DNA of 59,369 nt, filler included, from Nemertoderma westbladi (taxonomy: Eukaryota; Animalia; Xenacoelomorpha), in NCBI GenBank assembly GCA_032718475.1. It is 3 parts of 3 records of this genome, joined end to end, with 100 filler letters (N's around TTAATTAATTAA, not from the genome) between each part and the next. Parts side by side here need not be neighbours in the genome. Positions count along the whole stretch, not along the records: positions 44,941 to 59,369 come from JAUCBJ010004856.1; 2 more parts are not named here. The stretch is one strand, 5' to 3'. Within the stretch, counting starts at the first letter, position 1, and every line of letters begins with the position of its first letter. Position numbers and translations under genes: made by a program. The notes beneath the pieces were generated by a model. The model was not told the DNA's origin, did no database searches, and was given only the letters and a program-made list of their open reading frames with translations. This document shows, in pieces, positions 14,507 through 53,495 of the stretch.

Positions 14507-14902
14507 GTGGCCGTACTAGAGACTTGTTTCTAGATAAGTTCCTAAATTGTAGATGACGTGGCCATCCTAGAGACTTGTTTCTAGAGAAGTGCCTAAATTG
14601 CAGATGACGTGGCCATCCTAGAGACTTATTTCTAGAGAAGTGCCTAAATTGCAGATGACGTGGCCGTCCTAGAGACTTGTTTCTAGAGAAGTGCCTAAAT
14701 TGCAGATGACGTGGCCGTCCTAGAGACTTGTTTCTAGAGAAGTGCCTAAATTGCAGATGACGTGGCCGTCCTAGAGACTTGTTTCTAGAGAAGTGCCTAA
14801 ATTGCAGATGACGTGGCCGTCCTAGAGACTTGTTTCTAGAGAAGTGCCTAAATTGCAGATGACGTGGCCGTCCTAGAGACTTGTTTCTAGAGAAGTGCCT
14901 AT
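14507..14902. repeat. 51-bp tandem repeat (about 8 copies) running into a gap
   Basis: GTGGCCGTCCTAGAGACTTGTTTCTAGAGAAGTGCCTAAATTGCAGATGAC at 14507+51n. Confidence 0.95.
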
Positions 14903-15002
14903 NNNNNNNNNNNNNNNNNNNNNNNNNNNNNNNNNNNNNNNNNNNNTTAATTAATTAANNNNNNNNNNNNNNNNNNNNNNNNNNNNNNNNNNNNNNNNNN
15001 NN
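14903..15002. other. Assembly gap with synthetic TTAATTAATTAA spacer
   Basis: N run, a 12-mer giving stops in all frames, then an N run; 100 bp total. Confidence 0.98.
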
Positions 15003-16513: not shown

Positions 16514-19500
16514 TCAAGATGGTTGTTGATCTGAAGTAGTTAGGGTGAGGTCGCTGTCTGTGTCTTTTTCATACACGAGTGCTCGATACACTGCGGTGGT
16601 GTTTATTAGGTAACAGGATTCGTTTTGGTCGGAGAACTCGTCCGTATAGAATCCTTCCATCTCAGATTGATCAGTGTCGTTCACATCACTGAATTGGACA
16701 TGTAGTTCGGACTCACTTACCTGACTCGGGCTGTTTCGTTCGAATTCCGTGTGCAATAAGATATGATGTTTTGCGCCGCACTGTGCACACCTTGCGTCGG
16801 AGTTACAGGTTCGCCGTTGGTGTCCTCGTCTGAGGCAATTATAACACAACCGCTTATCCCACATGACTTCACGTCTCTCTGTTAATGATTTCTTTAGAAA
16901 TTCATCACATCTATTCAAATGGTGGGTCCCGTCACACAGCACACATTTCGGTTTGATGTTACTTACCTTATTTTGAGTCACATTGTGTACACTTGCCTTT
17001 TCTTCGGGCTTTCTCACCTGAATTCTCTTGGGAGACGTAGGAGGAGTTTTTCTTACCTGTTCTCTCCTGTCATTTGATCGAGACTTGAATTTACTCACCT
17101 GATCTTTAGGCATTTTATTGACATAAGATCTGTCAGTGTCTTTCCCGCTGTCCTCTCCTTGAGAAGTTTGGCTTTCACCGTCGTCGGTATAACATACTGG
17201 TATTACCCTTCTCCTAGAAACGGGTTTCTCACTTACCTTACTTTCCGCTGTCTTCTCTCTGGACTGCTTTATGAGCTGTAATTTCACCTCGCTATCCAGG
17301 AATGACATGAGATCAGCCATGGTAGGGTCTCGTTGTTGTTGTTCCATCATATATAACACTTTCTTATCCCAGCGTGTACCTACTCCACCTTTAGGTAAAG
17401 TAGAAGCCACTGCTCTAATAACCATAGTGTTCTGATACTCATGAGACTTACCCAGCCAGTCTAATTGTCTGCAGATCTCCTGGATCTCATCGGAAAACTC
17501 GATAATCCCGCTACTAATAAACTTTCGGGGCGCTACTAACTTGGCATACAAGTACCCAGCGATATTATTCCTATTACCATACCTGATGTTTAGTGTATCC
17601 CAAACTTGTCTTAATCCGTCTGGATGTCCAATAAACTTTAACGCCATTAACTTGGGAGATCCTTCCAAGCACTCGATGAGGTATCTAAGTTTTTCTCCAT
17701 TAGATAGTACAGAGTTCTGTATGTTATCTTTGTAATATTCATTAAAAGGTAACCATTTCATCTCATCTCCATTGAACTTGACGATCTCTCCAACCTTTAC
17801 CGCTTGCCGGGCTTCGGTTCTAGCCATTTGACGCGTAAAACTTTCCTGGGCCATCGTGCTATTTAATATCGAGTTATCGGTATATAAATTTCTCGGATTA
17901 TGATCCGGTCTATAGGGAATATCACTATCAACAGGTCTATAATTACCCTTAATAGGGTTCACTATAGGAGTTTCTACTTCGCTAGCAGTATAGATGCGTG
18001 TAGGCTCCACACCTTGCGCATGAGATACTTCAGACCTAATGGGTTGACACATTGTTACAGAGGGTGGTGGTATACCCTTTTGGGTATTTACTAATTTATC
18101 GCGTTCAAGCGCGATACTTTGCTGCACTTCTTGCAACTCTAGCCTACTTTCCCTTACTGTGCCCTTGAATTGCAGGACAGTCTCCTGCATCTGCCCGAGC
18201 AGGATGTCCATCCCCCGCCGTCTCTCGTCCACCCATTCGACCGCCGAAGCGGGAGTCGCCAACGTTGTAGCGGGCGGACGAGGGACAACGGGCGACAAAT
18301 TATGAATATTTCGCTCGGGGTCCAGGACCTGAACTGTCTCTGGGGCAGTTCTACGGGGCACAGGTAGCTTAGTGCTATGCAGAGGGAATTTAGAAGTAGT
18401 TTCAGGGAGCACAGGTGTATCTATCACCGAAGGGGTGATTTCAAGAACAGGCCTAATTATTTCAGGCTCATCTACTATAGTAGGGAGTCTTTCTATTTTA
18501 ATTATTTGGTCTGTGGGCTCTGTACTACCTAAGTTGGTGTTATTTAGTTGCCTTCTAACAGCTGGAGGCAAATCAGGCAATTTCTGACGGTGGAATGTTC
18601 TTTTACGTCTGCTTAGACGAGATCTATTTCCTTTGCCTTCAGTATCGGTGGTATCGCCTTCCTCAGATGATGTATATCCCTGTCTTTTGGGAGTAGATCG
18701 ATCCATCATCTGCATATTACTAGCTGTTAACTGTTTATTTATGCAGTCTTGATTCTCCTGAATGTTTTCCAATTCTAATTGGGTGGTTTCTTCAGCCGCT
18801 CTCCGTTCTGCTTCTGCCACTTTTGCCTCTGCCGCTGCCTCGGCTGCTGCCTCTGCCGATTTTGCCTCTGCCGCTGCCTCTGCCGCTTTTGCCTCTGCCG
18901 CTGCCTCTGCCGCTTTTGCCTTGGCCGCTGCCTCTGCCGCTTTTGCCTTGGCCGCTGCCTCTGCCGCTTTTGCCTTGGCCGCTGCCTCTGCCGCTTTTGC
19001 CTTGGCCGCTGCCTCTGCCGCCTTTGCCTCTGCCGCTGCCTCTGCCGCTTTTGCCTTGGCCGCTACCTCTGCCGCCTTTGCCTTGGCCGCCGCCGCCTTT
19101 CTTTCTGCTTCTGCAGCTACCACTGCTGCTTTCTTTCTGTCTTCTATACGTTTTTTCTTTACTTGTTCTTCTTGAACTCGTGTGATGCGGAGTTGTTCAT
19201 CGAATTTAGCCTGATTCGCAGCCCTCATTTCCACATCGATGGCATCCAACACAAGCTTGGTTCCTTCACTATTAGGGCTAAGTCCATCTAACCTTCTCCT
19301 CAACTCGTCATCACCTAAAAAACGTTGATAGTCTGACAGATAGATGTCAATGGCATCCCTCTTATGCGGTTTCTCTGCCGTCGATTCACTTTCCACTTGG
19401 GAAGAAATAGCGTCCGTTGATTCTCCATGGGTTGAGCGCTCCTCCAATTGAGCTTTCCACTGAGCTGCTCCTTGAACCTGGCGACTCACCCTTTGAAACC

Positions 19501-20308
19501 AAGTCTTTACGGCAACTTGCAACGACGTGTCTTGTTTTCTTTTAGAAGCCTCCTCAAAGGCGGATAAGATTAGCCTAATCCGCAAAACTCTTTCTCTAAC
19601 TTGATAAAGCAGCGATCCCTGCTCTTGAGGTCCTTGAGGTTGTTGAAACAGTTGTCTCTCTACTCGCTCCATAGAGCTGAAGAATCCCTGGGCGTATCCG
19701 GCTGCGGACCTCTTCCATACAGCTGGATCGATGGTTTCCTTGGCTACTCCCATCCGGTGTATGTCTTCCCAGGCAGCTTCTGATAAATCAAACGGGAGTC
19801 CGGGTCCGGGGAAGTTCCATTGCGACTCGACAATAGACTTCAGTTCTTCACTCGTGTATCCCGCGTAGCTATCTCTAGTTGACCGTTGACTTCTCGCCCA
19901 ATCGATCTGGTGTTCTTCCACCGCGATCAATAACCCAGCGAGCACGGCTGCAGGAAGGATGAGAAGGGGATCCGTATAAACCGCATCCGTCATCTCTGCT
20001 CCGCTCTCGGGTGTCAGCTCTACAGTATCCTCACTACTGGAGCTGCTGGGCCGCTGAGGAATAAGTTCTTGACTAACGGGTTGTTGCTGTTCCGCTGCTT
20101 CTTGGTCCCGCTTGACCTGAGCTCGGGTGCCTATGATAGACCTACGATGTTGGACCAGCCTAGGTTCTTTTATTACTACTGGAGGGATGACTTTCCTCAC
20201 AGTGGGGGGTGAACTGGACTTACGACCAGACGGTTCTACGTCTCTATCTGAGTCGCAGATAGTTACATCCAATAAACTGTCTGACAGGTTCTGCTTAGTA
20301 TCAGACAT
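16514..20308 (-). CDS. gag: BEL/Pao Gag, 1264 aa, intact
   Basis: DUF1759-like KFNGDEMKWLPF..EKLRYL..L.G. Three BEL-type knuckles: CVLCDGTHHLNRC, CYNCLRRGHQRRTC and CAQCGAKHHILLH. Long N-terminal extension with Ala/Lys/Glu repeats. Confidence 0.93.
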   Translation of the reverse strand: MSDTKQNLSDSLLDVTICDSDRDVEPSGRKSSSPPTVRKVIPPVVIKEPRLVQHRRSIIGTRAQVKRDQEAAEQQQPVSQELIPQRPSSSSSEDTVELTPESGAEMTDAVYTDPLLILPAAVLAGLLIAVEEHQIDWARSQRSTRDSYAGYTSEELKSIVESQWNFPGPGLPFDLSEAAWEDIHRMGVAKETIDPAVWKRSAAGYAQGFFSSMERVERQLFQQPQGPQEQGSLLYQVRERVLRIRLILSAFEEASKRKQDTSLQVAVKTWFQRVSRQVQGAAQWKAQLEERSTHGESTDAISSQVESESTAEKPHKRDAIDIYLSDYQRFLGDDELRRRLDGLSPNSEGTKLVLDAIDVEMRAANQAKFDEQLRITRVQEEQVKKKRIEDRKKAAVVAAEAERKAAAAKAKAAEVAAKAKAAEAAAEAKAAEAAAKAKAAEAAAKAKAAEAAAKAKAAEAAAKAKAAEAAAEAKAAEAAAEAKSAEAAAEAAAEAKVAEAERRAAEETTQLELENIQENQDCINKQLTASNMQMMDRSTPKRQGYTSSEEGDTTDTEGKGNRSRLSRRKRTFHRQKLPDLPPAVRRQLNNTNLGSTEPTDQIIKIERLPTIVDEPEIIRPVLEITPSVIDTPVLPETTSKFPLHSTKLPVPRRTAPETVQVLDPERNIHNLSPVVPRPPATTLATPASAVEWVDERRRGMDILLGQMQETVLQFKGTVRESRLELQEVQQSIALERDKLVNTQKGIPPPSVTMCQPIRSEVSHAQGVEPTRIYTASEVETPIVNPIKGNYRPVDSDIPYRPDHNPRNLYTDNSILNSTMAQESFTRQMARTEARQAVKVGEIVKFNGDEMKWLPFNEYYKDNIQNSVLSNGEKLRYLIECLEGSPKLMALKFIGHPDGLRQVWDTLNIRYGNRNNIAGYLYAKLVAPRKFISSGIIEFSDEIQEICRQLDWLGKSHEYQNTMVIRAVASTLPKGGVGTRWDKKVLYMMEQQQRDPTMADLMSFLDSEVKLQLIKQSREKTAESKVSEKPVSRRRVIPVCYTDDGESQTSQGEDSGKDTDRSYVNKMPKDQVSKFKSRSNDRREQVRKTPPTSPKRIQVRKPEEKASVHNVTQNKVSNIKPKCVLCDGTHHLNRCDEFLKKSLTERREVMWDKRLCYNCLRRGHQRRTCNSDARCAQCGAKHHILLHTEFERNSPSQVSESELHVQFSDVNDTDQSEMEGFYTDEFSDQNESCYLINTTAVYRALVYEKDTDSDLTLTTSDQQPS
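18820..19100 (-). repeat. 27-bp coding minisatellite (AEAAAKAKA)n in Gag
   Basis: CCGCTGCCTCTGCCGCTTTTGCCTTGG, about 10 copies. Confidence 0.92.
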
Positions 20309-21631
20309 GACTATGTATACCGTTGAATGTCTACTGCTGTATTACAGTCTGAGCAAGTCTAGTAACTCAGTATTAACTGCTAGCCTAGTAATTAATTACC
20401 GGTACTGCTACTCAGTGTAGCGTGATATATATAATATATTAGAATACCGGTATGCTTATAGTATATATAACTATTATTACAGACTAGGTTTATCACAGAA
20501 TACCGGTATAATTTTAGCACAAATATATATAAATATATAATAGGCCTATCGGAATACCGGTATACAGCTTACAGTTTGTAGTATATATAATTCTGGACTA
20601 GAATTAATTACAAGTACCGGTATAATTTCAGCCGAAATTTATAGAAATAAAGATAATAGGCCTATCGTAAATACCGGTATATCAATTATTTTAAATAATT
20701 GAATTTCTGAATTTTAGGGTTACTTGGTTACTTTACTTACTTTATTACCGTTATTTGAGCAGTAATCCAACTGATATTGAGACCTAATGGTTGTATGGTA
20801 GGCCTACGATTTATAAATCGTTAGATTTGATTTATAATATATATATACCCGTTTTAATGGGTTTTGTCAATGTTTGAAATAAATGTTATTATTTCTGGGG
20901 AGTAATCACTACACAAAGCGGTGCGCTTTCAATGAAGTGTTACTTATAAGACACTAAAACAAATAATTCTAATTTACCTAAGTTACTTAATACTACAAAT
21001 TACGTACAATTCGGGTTGAGATTACAATCTCTAAATAAACACAAAATTTACAAAAAAAAAAACACAAAATACGAATTTTTAGGGTAATTTTACAAGAAGT
21101 TTACAAACCAGCCTAACAAAGGGTTAGAAAACTGGTTATTACACGGACAGGGTACTACGGTATTTGAAATAATAAGTAGTAGTAAATACACTGCGTTGTC
21201 TAGATAGGAAAATGCCACCGCCTGACGACCTATAGCCGTATCGCTATAGGTTCTACGTTATGTATCACGGAGTGTTCCTACCTAGAAGTTAATAGAGCTA
21301 ATCGAATGTGCCTATCAACCACTTTACAACACAAATATAATGCCTACACTAATTATTTTCGGAAAGCACTGTACACTAAACCCTAAATTAGGTACGAGTA
21401 CTTATATAACAGATAATCAGTAGTTAAATATACTTGAACAGCTAAAAGAACCACGGCATCTGCTGGAGTGACCGATGCACAAAATCACCAGTCTTTACCT
21501 ACGCCGAGCAGCCCGTGTAGTACCGGGGTTAATTTAACTATAACGGTATGTATAACAAACACAATTACTGTAGGAGCAAACTTGGGGAATGAATGTTGCG
21601 GATAATCGCATAAACTCTGAATAATAAATAT

Positions 21632-37155: not shown

Positions 37156-39192
37156 TCGAACTCCCATATTTTTCCGCAACGGCCTTGGCCAAACTGAACA
37201 AACTGAACTTGAAACTGTTGAGGGAGGCCAAAGAGGGAGAGAAGATAAATCAGGGGAAGTTGAGCCAGCGACTAGGTGAGTCGAATAAACATTTCCGATA
37301 TCTAGTTCGTTTCGGGCAGGGAGAACTGGCGAGTGAGAGAGCGAGGGGGGTCGCCACCAAACTATTCGAACTGTGGCGATCCGGTGAACTATTCTAACTG
37401 TGGCGAAGTGGTGTACGTAGGGCCGTATTTAGTGGATGCTAGGGGAATTAAGTTAGTGGGTTGGGCAGATCCGCATGAGGGCGAACCCGAGGTTAACCCT
37501 GAGGATTTGGTCTCGTCGGTTAGCGAGAACGCCAGAAAGCGGGGGAAAATTAGTAGGACAGAGCGGCGACGGGAGTCCGTCGCAACCGATAAGTCCACTA
37601 CGTCCTCCGCGAAAGCAAGAAGGGTGTTAGAGATAGATCTGGCGTGTCAATTAGACATGGTGGCGCTAGACCAGAAAGAATTAGAGAGGCAGTTGGATGA
37701 GGGAACTGCGCTGTTAGAGAAAGAGAGGGAGTTGGTGAGGGAGTGTAGATGGAGGGCCGAGAGGGTAGCGAGGAATTGTAGAGAACAAGAAGAGAGAGAG
37801 GCAGAGGAACGTAAGGAGCGAGAAAGAAGAGTAGAGGAGGAACGTAAGGAGCGAGAAACGAGAGTAGAGAAGGAATGTAAAGAGCGAGAGACGAGAGTAG
37901 AGAACGAGCATAAAGAGCGAGAGACGAGAGTAGACTCGTCGAGTAGTCTCTACTCGTAGCCTGTATTTATCGTAGTGGTAAAGTAAGCTGTGATACTTTT
38001 CTGTCGGACTGCGATAGCAATCTTTTACAAATTAGTCGCAAAAGCCATGATATTCTAATTACTGGGGATTTTAACCTAGATGCCATAAACCCATCTAGTT
38101 TCTACATCCGCTATAACAAAATCTACAATAGCCATGGTTTACATCAAATAATTAATAAGCCGACAAGAGTTACATTACATTCAAAATCAACCATTGACCA
38201 TATTTTAACCAATTCTCAAACTAATATTATACAGTCAGATGTGTTTCCAATACAGATTGGAAATGCTGATTATTTTGCGGTTTTTGCAATATTCCAAAAA
38301 AATTCTACACCTTTTCAAGATGTAATTCAGAAAGCGTAATATGTAATTCAGAACCGTAATATGTAATTCAGAAAGTGTAATATGTAATTCAGAACCGTAA
38401 TATGTAAATCAGAAAGCGTAATATGTAATTCAGAACCGTAATATGTAATTCAGAAAGTGTAATATGTAATTCAGAACCGTAATATGTAAATCAGAAAGCG
38501 TAATATGTAATTCAGAAAGCGTAAAATGTAATTCAGAAACCGTAAAATGTAATTCAGAAACTTATATAGGAATCATGTCTTTAACAGTACCTATCTCTTG
38601 GTATCTCTTGGAAACCAAATGTTCCAGAAGCTTTCTGCTATTTTATTTGTGTTAATAATAATAGAATTGGTAGTTACTTGGTAACCTGTTAATTCTAAAG
38701 GAATGTTAGTGCAATGCGTTTCATTAATCATAAACGCCTATTAATATTTATAAATCGCGTTGTTTATTGGTTCTTAGTGGAATTTAATACGCAATTAATA
38801 ACTGGCCCATGTGGATGGATTATTTTAATTATCTTTCCAACGTTAACACATTTACCAAGGAAAATTAATATTTAATTCCAGTATAATGAATTGTACTAAG
38901 TATGTTCCAAAAATCCTTATACAATCACTCATTTTTTTGCGATGACAAATATTTAAGACCATGAAATGAACTTTGATTTGTTGCATAAAATGGCATTGAA
39001 TAAATTTCTAAGTAAGAAATTTCCGTTGACTCCGAATATTTATTATATAATTATTTTAATACACTACATTATATATTGGCATGACCATAGATGAGGCCAT
39101 TAAATAAATACATAAAATTGTGTAATAAATAGCAAATGTAATGTTTGATTTGATGTTGTTTGACACCACGCTTAATTTATTTATTGGACACT

Positions 39193-40642: not shown

Positions 40643-41565
40643 TTAATACAACTCATAGTACTGGAATGAAATATTAATTTTCCTTGGTAAAAGTATTTTG
40701 TTTGGAAAGATAATTAAATAATCCACATGGGCCAATTATTAATTGGTTATAAATTCCACTAAGAGCCAACAAACAACGTGATTTATAAATATTAATAGGC
40801 ATTTATGATTAATGAAACGCATTGCACTAACATTCCTTTAGAATTAACAGGTTACCAAGTAACTACCAATTCTATTATTATTAACACAAATAAAATAGCA
40901 GAAAGCTTCTGGAACACTTGGTTTCCAAGAGATACCAAGAGATAGGTACTGTTAAAGACATGATTCCTATATCAGTTTCTGAATTACATATTACGGTTTC
41001 TGAATTACATATTACGCTTTCTGAATTACATATTACAGTTCTGAATTACATATTACGCTTTCTGATTTACATATTACGGTTCTGAATTACATATTACACT
41101 TTCTGAATTACATATTACGGTTCTGAATTACATATTACGCTTTCTGAATTACATCTTGAAAAGGTGTAGTTATTTTCTCGATCAACCTAAAAAATTCCGT
41201 TATGACTTCTCACATTTTAACGAAGATAAGTTTCTCACTGATCTGCGCGATCGCAACTCCTGGTCATATGGTTTGCAAGACTCAGACAGCGACAAGAGCT
41301 TTGAGGCCTTTAATGATAATTTTATTAATATCACGAGAAGACATGTCCCTATGGTCGAGATTAGACCCACCGATATTTGTCGTAAACCCTGGCTTACTCA
41401 AAAGTTATTGGATAAAGTAAAAAAAAAATACAGTCTGTATAGTATCTATATTAAATATATAAGTTTAATAATATTAAAATTACTTTTAAAATTACTATTA
41501 AAAATACTAATATTAAAAATAAGTCAGCTCCCAATTTTGAGTTATATAAAAAATACCGTAACCGA

Positions 41566-44840: not shown

Positions 44841-44940
44841 NNNNNNNNNNNNNNNNNNNNNNNNNNNNNNNNNNNNNNNNNNNNTTAATTAATTAANNNN
44901 NNNNNNNNNNNNNNNNNNNNNNNNNNNNNNNNNNNNNNNN
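44841..44940. other. Assembly gap with synthetic TTAATTAATTAA spacer
   Basis: Same 100-bp format as 14903-15002. Confidence 0.98.
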
Positions 44941-45265
44941 ATATGCGAAGCCTTAGCATTGGGGTAGGCCTACCACTAATGATTTGTCTGTCGTTATTGT
45001 CTGTCATCGTCGTCTAATATTTTATCGCTAATAACTCGGTTATTCCATAATAAACTTAAACCAAACTTGGTACGTATGTAGACCGTCAAACGTTTAGAAA
45101 TAATCTGAAGTTTATTCAAATGTCAGACTGTCTGACAGTTTGCATTCTCAGGCCGAGAATGTCATGTAATTTTGGTGGGAACGGCGACCCACACATACAA
45201 TGAAAAAGAAGAGTTTCGGTATAATTGTTAGTTAAAACTGATTTCTGAGATGTTTCTGAATGTTG

Positions 45266-45565
45266 TTAGGGGGTAAGTGTGATGAGTATTATTTTTCGCC
45301 AACTACTGTAGTCAGGAAATTTGTTAAAAAGATAAGTTTGTGTAAGGCCGTTGACAGTTTTGTAAAACGAAATTAGACAAAATAATGGCATCCGGTCTTG
45401 AGGAGAGTGGCTGTAGGTTGCATTCCTTTTCAGTGCTACAGTAGCTAGTTTAAGGATATCAGTTCCGAGGTTGTCTAAGAGATCAGAGCAACCTACAGTA
45501 TGAGAGATGCCACACCATACAGCGCAGACGTACTCCAACTTGGTCTCATAAAACTGGTGTAGGCC
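45266..45565 (-). pseudogene. LINE RT C-terminal fragment
   Basis: RPKLEYVCAVW...FYKTVNGL...YL, a typical post-RT motif of CR1/Jockey-group LINEs. Confidence 0.6.
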
Positions 45566-45853
45566 TATATTATAAGCTAATTAAATTTTAATATAATAAG
45601 ATGAAACAGACTACTTCGATTAACGCATACTAGGGGAGTGCCCTGCCCTGAATATGTCATTATTATGTTAGTCCTTGGTAAGTATGTTATTGTGTAGACC
45701 TATTATAACTCTCTTATATTAGTTAGCTAGTGTTTTTTTTTCATTATTGTTTTACCAGGCAGCTAGTGATTTCTAATAGAACAAATAGCTATCGATTTTA
45801 TATACTGTAGGTAATTTAAAAAAAATAGGGTTTCAAATAATATTGCTGCACAA

Positions 45854-45875
45854 TTTATTAATTAATATGTTTATT
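45854..45875 (-). terminator. Two AATAAA polyadenylation signals downstream of the BAF-like ORF
   Basis: TTTATT at 45854-45859 and 45870-45875, 28-49 nt past the stop codon. Common by chance in AT-rich DNA. Confidence 0.5.
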
Positions 45876-45902
45876 GTAAATCGACTAAATTACTGGCTGG
45901 GT

Positions 45903-46994
45903 TCAAAGTGTCGGACAGCCGCAGCAAAATAAACACCTCCTCAGACAATTAAAAAATGTTTTACTAAATGAGTTGTTTGGACGGTTGCCTTTTCTCCCCC
46001 TATGAGAACATCGAAAGTTACACAGACAGTTAACCTTTGTGAGCTCTCCTGTTGTTTCACTACTGACCCCGACTTCCAGACTATCACTTTCACGTTTCTT
46101 TGTTGTCCCGATGTCTCTATGTTCCTTCACCCATTGCAATATTACATGATACCGAGTTCGATGCATTTGGGGCCCACAAATATCATGTAGATAACGATAG
46201 AACTCATCTTCATCCCCATTGAAGTCAATGAAGCGATTAACGAGCTGATAAGCGTATTTAATTCGCTTTGTTCCCAGCCGCTTGGAGAATGCTTCACCAA
46301 TCTCGGGAACCTCTATGACCTTTGTTCCCAGCCGCTTGGAGAATGCTTCACCAATCTCGGGAACCTCTATGACCTTTGTTCCCAGCCGCTTGGAGAATGC
46401 TTCACCAATCTCGGGAACCTCTATGACCTTTGTTCCCAGCCGCTTGGAGAATGCTTCACCAATCTCGGGAACCTCTATGACCTTTGTTCCCAGCCGCTTG
46501 GAGAATGCTTCACCAATCTCGGGAACCTCTATGACCTTTGTTCCCAGCCGCTTGGAGAATGCTTCACCAATCTCGGGAACCTCTATGACCTTTGTTCCCA
46601 GCCGCTTAGAGAATGCTTCACCAATCTCGGGAACCTCTATGACCTTTGTTCCCAGCCGCTTGGAGAATGCTTCACCAATCTCGGGAACCTCTATGACCTT
46701 TGTTCCCAGCCGCTTGGAGAATGCTTCACCAATCTCGGGAACCTCTATGACCTTTGTTCCCAGCCGCTTGGAGAATGCTTCACCAATCTCGGGAACCTCT
46801 ATGACCTTTGTTCCCAGCCGCTTGGAGAATGCTTCACCAATCTCGGGAACCTCTATGACCTTTGTTCCCAGCCGCTTGGAGAATGCTTCACCAATCTCGG
46901 GAACCTCTATGACCTTTGTTCCCAGCCGCTTGGAGAATGCTTCACCAATCTCGGGAACCTCTATGACCTTTGATGATTTAACTTTCTTGTACAT
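45903..46994 (-). CDS. Divergent BAF (barrier-to-autointegration factor)-like protein, 363 aa, with 13 tandem HhH-like repeats and a Cys-rich tail
   Basis: One repeat plus the unique region (VIEVPEIGEAFSKRLGTKRIKYAYQLVNRFIDFNGDEDEFYRYLHDICG) aligns without gaps to human BAF 20-68 as recalled ([49 protein letters not shown]): 17/49 identities by hand. W84 also kept. ATG to stop is intact. Confidence 0.82.
   Translation of the reverse strand: MYKKVKSSKVIEVPEIGEAFSKRLGTKVIEVPEIGEAFSKRLGTKVIEVPEIGEAFSKRLGTKVIEVPEIGEAFSKRLGTKVIEVPEIGEAFSKRLGTKVIEVPEIGEAFSKRLGTKVIEVPEIGEAFSKRLGTKVIEVPEIGEAFSKRLGTKVIEVPEIGEAFSKRLGTKVIEVPEIGEAFSKRLGTKVIEVPEIGEAFSKRLGTKVIEVPEIGEAFSKRLGTKVIEVPEIGEAFSKRLGTKRIKYAYQLVNRFIDFNGDEDEFYRYLHDICGPQMHRTRYHVILQWVKEHRDIGTTKKRESDSLEVGVSSETTGELTKVNCLCNFRCSHRGRKGNRPNNSFSKTFFNCLRRCLFCCGCPTL
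46266..46972. repeat. 54-bp coding tandem repeat, 13 copies
   Basis: Units at 46266+54n. One variant base seen (46608, synonymous Ser codon on the minus strand). Confidence 0.97.
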
Positions 46995-47116
46995 TATTAG
47001 TTCGTATTAGTTCAAAGATGAATAGATAAGATCAAATATTACCGATTATTATACAGTATATGTCCGATTTGTAAATAATTTTTCTCCTAATTGACATAGA
47101 TTGATGTGCAGTTCGA

Positions 47117-47189
47117 TTATATATAATATTTTGAATTCCAGAACTTAGTTTTGATTGGTTGATTTGAGCAATACTGTTCTTCTGATTGG
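47117..47189 (-). promoter_or_regulatory. Putative promoter: two CCAAT boxes plus a TATA-like element
   Basis: ATTGG at 47154-47158 and 47185-47189 (31 bp apart). TTATATATAA at 47117-47126, about 120 bp upstream of the ATG at 46994. Confidence 0.5.
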
Positions 47190-47569
47190 CTAAAACAAAA
47201 TGGTATTTGTTAGGCGGTTTTGGTGGTAGGTTTACCCGTTAACGCTGTTCGCGACTCTGTTCGCGACTCTGTCCGCGAATCCGCCCGCAACGCCGCCCCC
47301 GACGTTCCCACAAAACAGATCAAAGATATGGTCGTTGTGCTGTGGGATAACACGTGTAACATGGAGGAGGGCTGGCTCCAGCACCCATCGGGAGTGGCAG
47401 CGGACTTAGCCCACCCAAATACCCACCACCCCCGATCTCCGTTGGCCTCTAGCTGATGCTGGACGAAGTCACGGACCTCGTATTCGTCCACTGATAGATT
47501 TTTCGACTGAAAATTTAAATAATATTTAAAACAAATATATTTAAAGTAAATTTGTAATCTAAATTATCC

Positions 47570-47666
47570 CATTATTACGTTTTAATAATAATATAGCCAT
47601 TATTACGTTTTAATAATAATATAGCCATTATTACGTTTTAATAATAACATAGCCATTATTACGTTT
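47570..47666. repeat. 28-bp tandem repeat, about 3.5 copies
   Basis: CATTATTACGTTTTAATAATAATATAGC. Confidence 0.85.
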
Positions 47667-48044
47667 TTTGCATATTGCAAAAATTAATAAAATGTCAATA
47701 ATTATATTATTTTTAATGTAACAATTTTTTCACGAGAATGTCATATTTTTTAAGCAACTAATTGACTGCAACCCCATATTAGATGATTTCACACCAAAAA
47801 AATTTTTTAGCACAAAATATATTTTTTTGTAGCACCATTTTACATCCCCCAATTTTGAATATCTCTCACCAAAAAGCATTTAATTATTTTGGTGTTGAGT
47901 AATTGTTTTTGGTATGACTTTAAATGGTAGCCTATTTTTTATATCTTACAAACGTGGTGTTCTTCAATGTATTATTGCTACTATCAATTAATTAAAAAGT
48001 ACAATAGTGTAAGTACTGTATGTAAATGATTAGTTAAGCACCAT

Positions 48045-49191
48045 TTAGCACCTATTAGTTAAGTCCAATTGCATCTTCCGGCTGAAGAATATTGGAATCG
48101 GGACGCCGGTGTAATACTCCAGTCGTTGGTCGCTTTTGGGGATACTCGCCGTGGCCGGTAGCCCGCGGAATGCTGGGCTTTGGCGTAGTATGTTCTCACT
48201 TCGATAACCTTCTTTATATTCTGCCGGTCGCATCCCGGGCGCCCGTTTCTGGCAGTGGATCCATTCGGTCTGTTTGGCGTACCATCGGGTAAGTCGCATA
48301 GGGTCTTGTGGAATGGAAGGGGCCATTGCCACAGCTGGTCGGCAAAGAGGTGCAGGGGCGTTCGCCGGAGGAATTCCGAGGAGATCTACGGGAGTCAGAG
48401 CAACGCTGCGACCCTTTGCAACCTGTATCGCTGAGCAGGTCCGTTGGGTGCTGGTACTCAGGATCTCCGAAGACCAGTCTTCTCCCCCCGCCCCGGGAAT
48501 GGATATGGAGACAACCTCTGACATATGTCGCCGAAGTCATTCAATGCGAAGGTAGTTACTAACTCCCTAGCGGGACTACTGGAGCCAAGTGGGGTGGATA
48601 CGCCTGCTTCCGTCGCAGGTTCGGCCGAGGCAACCCGTTTGGCGGCCGGTTCGTACGCGACTTCCGGATCGAGTTGTCGCTTTGGGGTGGACAGTAGAAC
48701 ACCTTCCTGTAGCCATATTTCCTCCCCATCCGAAGATATCAGTGGTTCCTCTGCACCGAGGAGATCAGCAATCGTAGGGATGTCGAACGGTCTATTCTCG
48801 TCTCAGGATGCGATGACATAGAGCGTTTTCATCTCTCCTGGTGGAATATTCTCTACCGCTTTTAACGCGTGGTCGATAACTTCGTTCCACTCATAGTCGA
48901 TAAAGGATCTAGGAACCGCGTTAATGAGATTATCGGGAGTCTTACAGATGAACTTGGCAACTGTGTATGATTCCATTACGACGTAGATATAGTTCCGTCG
49001 ATCTGGATTCTCCTTAATTCTCCGTTTAGCACCGCGAGGTAGCCAATACCGGATTTCATCCGTCTTACCTCTCGGAATCCACGCATGAATTCTGAATTCT
49101 TGAATTCACTATTATTTTTCAGGAGCCTACAAATCCTAGCAAAAAACGAGAGGATATTGGGGTAGAAATTGTCATCCCAAAAAATATACAA
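48045..49191 (-). pseudogene. CpG-rich cluster of unidentified, partly decayed ORFs
   Basis: The TAA of ORF 49191-48976 overlaps the ATG of MESYTVAKFICKTPD... That frame has a TGA after 57 codons, then stays open to 48458. ORF 48524-48045 follows. Confidence 0.4.
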
Positions 49192-49194
49192 AGT

Positions 49195-49352
49195 AAACCA
49201 AATGTGGTTGCCCTAGCTGCTCAACTAAAAATGACACCAACCCAGCAAGCTCAATTCACTCAGGCCATTGTCAAGGAATGTGGTGGTGATGTTAGCAAAA
49301 TATCTTCATCATATGCTGTAGCAGATCGAGCTAGGCGAAATGTTAATAGGAA
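49195..49352 (+). pseudogene. Possible hAT (hATm-like) transposase fragment
   Basis: LKMTPTQQAQFTQAIVKECGGDVSKISSSYAVADRARR resembles, from memory, the segment before the HWD motif of hATm-type transposases. Confidence 0.4.
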
Positions 49353-49734
49353 GATACTACTAAGACTTGAAGCTTCAATATTACTTCCAATCGATTCATC
49401 AGTCCCGATAACCTATAAAAATGGGTTGAAATGAAAACCTTGTGGTATACTCTGAATATCGTAATTTTGAAAATGGCTTTTTAGGGATGCGATTATATAT
49501 ATGACTTTTGAGTAGAATGAGACAATGTTTAATAAGTTTGATATTTTCGAATAGCACGATTTAAAATGTACAACGAATAAAGTTTTAATCGGCCATTAGG
49601 CCAGGGATTACACACAAAGTCTCCAGTTTCCAGTGAGGCCCCCCAGAAATATACTCCCCAGAGTGATTCGAATTCAATGCAACCACTACTTCAAGGTGGA
49701 CCTAACAATTAATATTTATTATATTTTTAATATA

Positions 49735-51216
49735 CAGTCGTGGCCAAAAGTCTTGCACCAAAGTAGATTTGTAATGGGTTTTAACTACGTGTATATGAAT
49801 ATATTGAATTTAATGCGTTTTATGTCATAACCAAATAAGATAGCAGGTCACAGGACATAATGGAATGTTTCTGACTCTATTTATTCCAAGTGTGACATGT
49901 GATAGGTGTCAGTACCCACATTGGTAGGCCTACAGCTACGCCATACCTACTGCAGTACTGGTAGGTTGTTTAGATTACTGTACTACTGTGATCTTGTTGC
50001 AAGTTACTGCAATTACTAGCTGCAATGGTTAAGAAAGCTTTAATCTCATTGGAGAAACGCAGGAAGGCAGTTGCGTTGAAGGAGGAGGGCTATACAGATC
50101 GAGAAGTTGGTAAGCGTTTGGGAATCAGTCACACATCAGTTTCACGACTAGTGAGGAAGGAATGTGTTCATGGAACATTGGCGGATCGACCCCGATCTGG
50201 AAGACCACGTGTTACTTCTAAGTATACCGATAATAGAATACGGCGAGCAGCAGTGAAATCTCCAACCATCACTTCTGCTGCCATCCAGGGATCATTAGGC
50301 CTCCCTTCAACTGATAATCAGCCAAGTGTCCGCACTATTCGAAGGCGGTTGGTGGAAGAGTTCGACCTCAGGTCACATAGGGCTGCAAAGAAACCCCTTC
50401 TAACGGCGAAGAATCGAAAGGACCGATTAGAATTTTGTGAAAAGTATAAAGACTGGGGAACAGAAGATTGGGACAAAGTAATGTTTTCGGATGAAAGTAA
50501 CTTCCTGCAGTTTGGGTGAGTGGCAAAGAACGTTAGACGCCCTGTAAACGAGCGTTATAATCCACATTATATTTCGCCAACTGTTAAGAATCCTCCACAC
50601 GTCATGGTCTGGGGCGCTTTCACCTCACAAGGACGGGGGCCACTATGGTTTCTGCCAAAAGGTACCACCATGAACTCGAAAGTGTACCTGAAGATGCTGC
50701 AGGAGAAGTTGGCCACCCACATGGAAATAACAGGTGCAACAACGTTCCAGCAGGATGGTGCTCCTTGCCATACTGCTGGGATCGTGAAGAAGTGGATTGG
50801 GGATCAAGGGATCGTGCCATTAATGTGGCCAGGAAATAGCCCTGACCTCAATCCTATTGAGAACCTTTGGGTCATAATGAAGGCTAAGGTAGCACAGAAG
50901 CGCCCTAGTAGTATGGCTGAACTAATTAATATAATAAAGCGGGTGTGGGTTCTGGAGATATCACAAGATTATTGTAGAAACTTAATTCACAGTATGCCGC
51001 GCCGTATAGAGTCAGTCATCATAAATAAAGGCCTACACACTAAATACTGATACCACAGTACCTGATAACTTGCAGACTAGTATAATTGTGTTATATCTAT
51101 AATTTGAACATATATACATATATAAATACAGTTATTTATATACAAAAAACATTATTTAACTTATACTATAAAACATACCAAATTTGCGTTTGGTGCAAGA
51201 CTTTTGGCCACGACTG
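49735..51216 (+). mobile_element. Tc1 transposon, full length
   Basis: TA|CAGTCGTGGCCAAAAGTCTTGCACCAAA...TTTGGTGCAAGACTTTTGGCCACGACTG|TA: perfect 28-bp TIRs with a TA duplication. Confidence 0.97.
50025..51050 (+). pseudogene. Tc1 DD34E transposase with a single in-frame TGA (50517-50519)
   Basis: HTH region, RSGRPR, FSDES, QQDGAPCH and SPDLNPIENLW; 34 residues between the second D and the E. Confidence 0.95.
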
Positions 51217-51859
51217 TAGGTCTGTCAAACATACTTTTTTATTTTACATGAATTTGCTCAAATTTATTTAAATTTAAATTAAATATTAATATAATTATTA
51301 TGCAGTACTTGCTTGGCTTCTGAGTTCTGAACAAATTTTTTGACGAAATATTATTTTGTTTCACTTATATTTATTTAGTTATATTATAGCAGATGCCCTT
51401 TCCAAATATATTTTTTATAGAATATTATTTAGGTTTACTATTATTAACTACTGAATATGGTTTTTGTTAATTTCATTAATATTAGCATATTTAACTAACT
51501 ACTAATTACTATATTTAGCTAGTATAAAAAAGTTTGTGTATTTTCAAAATGTTGGCTACGAGCTTCATAAGTACCGACAACCTCTAAGGTACGTACTGAA
51601 CCTATAAGGTACGTATGTACTGGAGACCAGAGACAAACTTAAGTTAGGTTATGAACACCTAAGACAAACTTAAATTAGTTAAATTAGGTACTGAACACCA
51701 GAGACAAACGTAAATTAGGTATTACAGGAAAAACAACTTTGTTCCATTCTTCGGTCCAACAACATTCTTTGATTATAATCAATTACTGACAAATAGTATT
51801 GCAATACTCTATTTACTATTTACTCTATTTCTATTTACAATACTCTATTTACTAAGTTC

Positions 51860-52976: not shown

Positions 52977-53038
52977 TTAAAGAAGGATTATGTAGAACTT
53001 TTAACAAAACTAACATCTTTATAATTGTTCATATCAAA

Positions 53039-53495
53039 TCTCAATGTGAGGATTTTCCTGTTTGCCTGAAATTAATTGAAACAGTTTATCAATCAGTGGC
53101 TTATATTAAGTTTTATATAACTCTCAATGTGTATGATTTTCCTATTTGCCTGAAATTAATTTAAACAGTTTATCAATCAGTGGCTTATATTAAGTTTTAT
53201 ATAACTCTCAATGTGTAGGATTTTCCTGTTTGCCTGAAATTAATTTAAACAGTTTATCAATCAGTGGCTTATATTAAGTTTTATATAACTCTTAATGTGT
53301 AGGATTTTCCTGTTTGCCTGAAATTAATTTAAACAGTTTATCAATCAGTGGCTTATAATAAGTTTTATATAACTATCAATGTGTAGGATTTTCCTGTTTG
53401 CCTGAAATTAATTTAAACAGTTTATCAATCAGTGGCTTATATTAAGTTTTATATAACTCTCAATGTGTAGGATTTTCCTGTTTGCCTGAAATTAA
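53039..53495. repeat. 84-bp tandem repeat, about 5.4 copies
   Basis: CAATGTG-type unit starts at 53040, 53123, 53207, 53291, 53375 and 53459. Confidence 0.95.

Follow-up and report, generated by a model that had tools for sequence, protein, structure and literature searches.

The protein BAF is small and conserved, and the G25E mutant is in standard use as a dead and dominant-negative form of it. For the human protein, one study (PMC2173821) reports that the mutants 6E, 25E, 27E and 46E lose DNA binding and that 25E does not form normal dimers. According to the same text, residues 51, 53 and 54 are required for emerin binding, Gly47 is an interface residue and, with reference to Haraguchi 2001, G25E blocks nuclear reassembly in cells. 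A BAF paralog with weaker DNA binding, BAF-L (BANF2), is described as a proposed BAF regulator in two further reports (PMC13443024; PMC8877947). This paralog is 53% similar to BAF, enriched in testis and pancreas, and heterodimerises with BAF.

Here we analyzed a stretch of 59,369 nucleotides of the Nemertoderma westbladi assembly GCA_032718475.1 (here referred to as the window). The window is eukaryotic and transposon-rich, with a Pao-type element, several RT fragments and a Tc1-type element. It carries an ORF which consists of 9 aa, 13 copies of an 18-aa unit (VIEVPEIGEAFSKRLGTK) and a further 120 aa. This layout had been given in a preliminary description of the DNA and was borne out by ORF reading and TRF; the terms intact and intronless, which were used there as well, describe the ORF at the DNA level. 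An in-frame stop is located five codons upstream of the ATG. On the plus strand the array is spanned by two long frames, of 242 and 260 aa, which were set aside as antisense of the repeat. The coordinates of all features are summarized in Table 1. We favour, with belief and doubt about equal, the reading that the ORF is one member of a BAF-derived family which is multicopy, changes fast and has a predicted loss of DNA bridging, and that the array is a very young minisatellite, likely carried as a passenger.

Table 1. Features of the BAF-derived locus and its spacers, in positions of the window
Feature	Position	Strand	Basis or remark
Multicopy cassette as far as traceable	44941..47250	.	Run contigs; downstream end at or beyond the spacer
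Upstream cassette edge	47242..47250	.	Contigs diverge into several sequences; locus-level depth by 47290
Promoter-like CCAAT (47189), CCAAT (47158) and TATA (47125/47123)	47117..47189	minus	Motif search
BAF-derived ORF, 363 aa	45903..46994	minus	ORF reading, Pfam SAM_BAF and human BAF alignment
ATG and 9 N-terminal codons	46968..46994	minus	Equivalent of human residues 11-19, inferred by ungapped extension
13 x 54-bp in-frame array	46266..46967 (units descend from 46967)	minus	TRF; unit junction present in three of the four runs
Glu codon at the human Gly25 position, one per unit (13 of 13)	46302..46304 (last unit)	minus	Human BAF alignment
BAF-like domain (last unit and next helices, aa 226-290), without BAF helix 1	46125..46319	minus	SAM_BAF profile about 20-86/88, human BAF alignment, helical model
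73-aa tail without family match, low model confidence	45903..46124	minus	6-, 9- and 1-bp indels among copies
Pair of AATAAA poly(A)-type signals, beginning 28 nt past the stop	45854..45875	minus	Motif search
Spacers, 44 N + TTAATTAATTAA + 44 N	44841-44940, 14903-15002		Separate distinct contigs

By profile the ORF belongs to the BAF domain family, a homology that rests on sequence. The preliminary description had recognized the ORF as BAF-derived and had named the Pfam BAF profile as the check. The profile SAM_BAF (PF02961) scored 29.4 bits (E 1.2e-6) for the last unit plus tail and 40.6 bits for the whole ORF, with a further score of 30.7 bits, all above the gathering cut-off of 25. With phmmer, query residues 6-56 aligned to human BAF 25-75 (1CI4) without gaps at E 5.8e-4 and with 17 identities by hand count, and BAF made up seven of the eight matches listed. 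Both results confirmed the assignment. The claim that the repeat covers the helix-hairpin-helix (HhH) region held as well, the unit being the equivalent of human BAF 20-37, which we take to be this motif. Pfam matches of the full ORF to Bac_DnaA_C and NIBRIN_BRCT_II were rejected; they are sums of 13 sub-threshold repeats with no stretch that passes.

The single-sequence AlphaFold model of the domain was helical with a mean pLDDT of 51.6. In a Foldseek search with this model BAF chains were found at rank 2 and at ranks 4-8, with rmsd values of 1.7-2.1 A over 47-48 residues at a non-significant E of about 5. VIA-align placed BAF at rank 9 (Z 4.3, rmsd 2.8, 55 aligned), and an uninformative homodimer prediction, run without alignment, scored 0.00. 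The top three Atlas clusters were SAM_BAF at 0.88, which is under the reliable range, and one 50%-virus cluster at 0.85 is a lead only. The C-terminal CPTL of the tail resembles a prenylation motif; we gave it no weight because the tail frame varies among copies.

Comparison with human BAF (BANF1; PDB 1CI4, 6GHD, 7ABM, 9J8M) showed that Gly27, Lys32, Ala42-Tyr43, Asp55-Glu56-Asp57, Cys67-Gly68 and Arg75 are kept in the ORF. The domain retains the hydrophobic core together with the A-Y, D-E-D and C-G motifs, and the array unit contains Gly27 and Lys32, its position 33 being basic as well. What sets the ORF apart from BAF are the 73-aa extra tail, the multicopy state and, in the present copy, the N-terminal array. 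Furthermore, three defining residue sets fail, and the ORF is therefore not a canonical BAF. The Gly25-x-Gly27 DNA-backbone motif has Glu at 25 with Gly at 27. Human BAF residues 1-10 are without counterpart, so that Lys6, helix 1 and the phosphorylated Thr2/Thr3/Ser4 are missing; an upstream exon may supply helix 1. In the human BAF alignment Gly47 is replaced by Asn, and Val51/Lys53/Lys54 by Asp/Asn/Gly. By analogy with the human mutants, loss of DNA bridging is predicted for the BAF-derived family, where the G25E effects were measured in human BAF and the present domain, about one third identical to it, may differ.

Relatives of the domain were scarce. Among 1.84 billion representatives only three matches were obtained at E<=0.001 (P0001-P0003; ENA, Logan). 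Each of these has two whole BAF domains which are 28-34% identical to the ORF domain; BAF domains thus occur in tandem. In these proteins it is the whole domain that is repeated, and Gly25 is retained, whereas the ORF repeats an 18-aa part with Glu, and the partial-HhH array is absent from all three of these matches. A KYAYQ stretch is common to P0001 and the ORF protein. Word-indexed protein searches returned no match for the BAF-like domain, nor for the shorter P0003 relatives. Pattern searches gave five matches in viral contigs and 591 in metagenome contigs with no confirmed relative in either set, and the viral fold library gave no match at E<=0.001. We found no report of such a BAF-derived family or of a partial-HhH array in the literature covered, which excludes subscription journals and supplements. 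BAF-L/BANF2 is comparable as a divergent BAF paralog; the analogy is one of function only, and orthology is not claimed.

The ORF belongs to a multicopy gene family, a property which had been overlooked in the preliminary description. Four DNA runs with one organism label were available from three samples and three studies (X1-X4; X2 and X3 represent one sample). Relative to locus-specific contigs, single contigs of the 3' flank had a depth of 7.5x, 13x and 22x in X1, X2 and X3, and those of the 5' flank of 6x and 17x in X1 and X3; since depth is not copy number, we read multicopy only as several. The cassette contains, in this order, CCAAT-CCAAT-TATA, the ORF, AATAAA and more than 900 bp of common 3' flank past the poly(A) signal. 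The CCAAT boxes are separated by 31 bp, and their arrangement with a TATA box is unique in the window; it occurred in 4 of 10000 shuffles, for a pattern picked post hoc. Because the promoter and the long 3' flank are common to copies, these have probably spread as DNA and not as retrocopies. The cassette would have been copied through DNA-level duplication; retroposition of mRNA, which would not carry a promoter or a long 3' flank, was discarded as the route.

One paralog could be followed in X4 on a contig of 427 nt (depth 119.8), which runs from the 5' flank through one unit into the tail. Its letters 72-197 map to 47039-46914 and letters 144-413 to 46319-46045. Six differences over 46914-47039 were all accounted for and none is located in the Glu codon, while the equivalents of Lys32 and Lys33 are Glu and Trp. 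Glu at position 25 was fully checked in this one paralog contig only; as this one-unit copy keeps Glu, the residue predates the array, at least for the X4 copy. A further contig of X3 (139 nt) has one unit as well, with only 25 nt on its 5' side, below the bar of 31 letters.

The promoter-like segment 47068-47250 is common to genomic copies which diverge into other downstream sequence at 47068, and it is possibly used by another gene. A high-copy dispersed repeat, unrelated to the gene, is located inside the cassette near 45000-45130. Additionally, depth spikes were found at 45962-46053 and at about 46098-46145, with values of up to about 26000 in X3; each has one loose end and no joint listed. 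They hint at tandem arrays (about 78 and 46 bp) which arose independently from the gene tail in other copies.

The existence of the array, for which the preliminary description had suggested a check against reads, was established from the same runs. Run contigs were mapped to one-unit stretches of the window. A contig joint stepping back by 54 bases was present in X1, X2 and X3, that is in three of four runs and two of the three studies; a unit-to-unit junction was not found in the X4 contigs. As the junction occurs in three of the runs and in two studies, the tandem repeat is no assembly artefact. The independent data support at least two units, and 13 is the count of the assembly. The near-identity of the units is the only point in favour of an artefact, to which we assign virtually no probability: the junction contigs refute it for the existence of the repeat, and what rests on the assembly is the number of units. 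The listed junction contig had about 31-32x the depth of locus-specific contigs in X1 and X3 and 0.4x in X2; here, too, depth is not copy number, and the same-sample runs X2 and X3 disagree for the flank (13x and 22x) as well as for this contig (0.4x and 32x).

TRF described the array with a period of 54, 13.1 copies, 99% matches and a score of 1407. Twelve of the 13 units are identical and unit 7 has a single synonymous change. The one difference in 702 nt within the array compares with 5 in 54 when the unit is set against the X4 paralog, so that expansion or homogenisation of the array is much younger than the family. A 5-bp microhomology, CAAAG, is shared between the unit end and the 5' flank at the array start. 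Microhomology is a typical seed of tandem duplication. In this respect, and in its near-identical units with a length divisible by 3, the array is like known coding minisatellites. It may have arisen by a 54-bp duplication at CAAAG followed by expansion through slippage or unequal crossing-over, and it would be tolerated because the frame is kept and other gene copies exist. The array is therefore likely a very young in-frame minisatellite and a tolerated passenger; alternatively, it could be a young adaptation. In the single-sequence AlphaFold prediction, which is weak, the array had a pLDDT of about 30 and no secondary structure, and the N-terminal extension derived from it is probably unstructured according to this model. 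Other near-perfect minisatellites in the window were found at 14507-14901 (51 bp x 7.7, 97%) and 53031-53495 (84 bp x 5.5, 96%), and a 146 bp x 10 tandem array at 699-2315.

Each 54-bp unit starts with GT and finishes with AG. Units join at AAG/GT and a second AG/GT is located inside the unit, which gives the duplicated AG/GT of tandem-duplication introns. The array might thus be spliced out as a new intron of this type, and the copy would yield an ordinary 147-aa protein. That introns can be gained when an AGGT segment is tandemly duplicated is documented (PMC3443670). However, the array differs from such introns by its weak splice signals. The donor sequence, GTCATA, bears little resemblance to GTRAG, pyrimidines make up 6 of 17 acceptor positions and there is no branch-like match, judged by a consensus which may not be that of the host. 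In view of these signals we consider splicing of the array quite improbable.

The preliminary description had proposed a multivalent DNA binder. In this reading the array would be a multivalent helix-hairpin-helix module under selection, which binds chromatin, foreign DNA or many partners. The unit closely matches the HhH region and retains Gly27 and Lys32 as well as the basic character of position 33, the frame is kept, and the lone difference between units is synonymous. The junction reaches about 31x the locus depth in X1 and X3, from two studies. Nevertheless, the DNA-binding part of the proposal is not supported. Glu is found at the Gly25 position in 13 of 13 units, a change which in human BAF leads to loss of DNA binding and of normal dimers (PMC2173821); the unit is neutral (3 K/R and 3 D/E, net zero), the array is near-invariant, and one-unit paralogs occur. 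Units without divergence hold no record of selection on the array. No confident fold was predicted for it (AlphaFold, weak), it was not found in the X4 sample, and there are the hints of other arrays, of about 78 and 46 bp, from other gene parts in other copies. Taken together we regard a selected multivalent module as very improbable. The decoy idea, likewise raised in the preliminary description, would concern the family as a whole, not the array.

The differences between copies bear on whether the family is a coding one. The coding indels listed or deduced measure 6, 9 and 9 bp, while in the flanks 2 of 16 indels have a length divisible by 3, with a post hoc Fisher p of 0.003-0.03 depending on counting, among the matches listed (12 of 26 indel rows). 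Those of 6 and 9 bp in the ORF come from the same contigs, and the frame pattern is broken near aa 318 by two deletions of 1 bp. The 14 in-ORF substitutions listed comprise nine non-synonymous and five synonymous changes, and purifying selection is therefore not indicated. This ratio, the 1-bp deletions in the tail, the alteration of all main BAF functional sites and the repeat-rich surroundings are what would be seen if the cassette were dead or silent cargo, i.e. a BAF pseudogene in segmental duplications or in a non-autonomous element with the array and residue changes as decay. Yet promoter motif, ATG, open frame and AATAAA are all present, indels within the first 310 codons keep the frame, and the hydrophobic core is retained along with the A-Y, D-E-D and C-G motifs. 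We therefore rate silent cargo as possible, if rather unlikely.

The cassette might also be a selfish mobile element with a dominant-negative BAF mimic, which disturbs BAF in the germline or early embryo and thereby gains transmission or shields its own DNA. It is multicopy, has a sharp upstream edge with several different flanks and a compact autonomous promoter, and carries a natural equivalent of G25E, the change that blocks nuclear reassembly in human cells (Haraguchi 2001, as cited in PMC2173821). On the other hand, a search of the window gave no long inverted repeat at 47242-47250 and thus no terminal inverted repeat pairing with this edge, and the other cassette end lies beyond the assembly spacer. 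The edge itself may belong to a separate repeat, because the upstream 180 bp or so are also present in copies which continue differently. There is no relative among the viral or metagenome contigs. Since the emerin-contact residues are altered as well, a BAF mimic has no evident target. On balance such an element is improbable. The same low probability applies to a more far-reaching version, in which a mobile cassette spreads the first BAF antagonist encoded by a selfish element (G25E equivalent under its own CCAAT-CCAAT-TATA promoter) and some copies amplify the disabled hairpin as a multivalent decoy.

The gene had been placed inside retroelement debris, which is a loose description. Promoter-like and poly(A) signals belong to the gene itself, and the closest elements identified around it are a Tc1-type DNA transposon and, across the spacer 44841-44940, from which the gene is about 960 bp away, a LINE-type RT fragment. 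The transposon (49733-51218) is flanked by TA and has perfect 30-bp terminal inverted repeats, and its transposase is broken by one in-frame stop near 50517-50519. No Rfam match was obtained across 44941-49732. Directly upstream of the cassette, broken GC-richer frames were found at 48045-49212 (minus) which had no Pfam, protein (word-indexed) or Atlas match.

Further repeats are present elsewhere in the window. An inverted repeat pair of about 540 bp (38305-38899 / 40643-41169, 90% identity) carries 21/41-bp arrays in each arm and is foldback-like. A 1275-aa Pao-type gag-like frame (DUF1759) is located at 16514-20341 (minus) and includes, at 18824-19094, a repeat of 27 bp x 10 which codes for Ala/Lys/Glu. 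In the whole window TAGGCCTA occurs 17 times, compared with 0.78 occurrences expected from base composition.

Under the favoured reading of a multicopy BAF-derived family, its product would be a BAF-fold protein-interaction module which modulates the host BAF pathway without DNA binding, by analogy with what is proposed for vertebrate BAF-L. The array is probably a snapshot of the birth of a coding minisatellite in a redundant gene. It is the family, more than the array, that is worth following. If it naturally carries a G25E-type change, the BAF fold would have been reused without DNA binding, and the family would allow the role of BAF-derived modulators or mimics to be tested in germline or transposon conflict.
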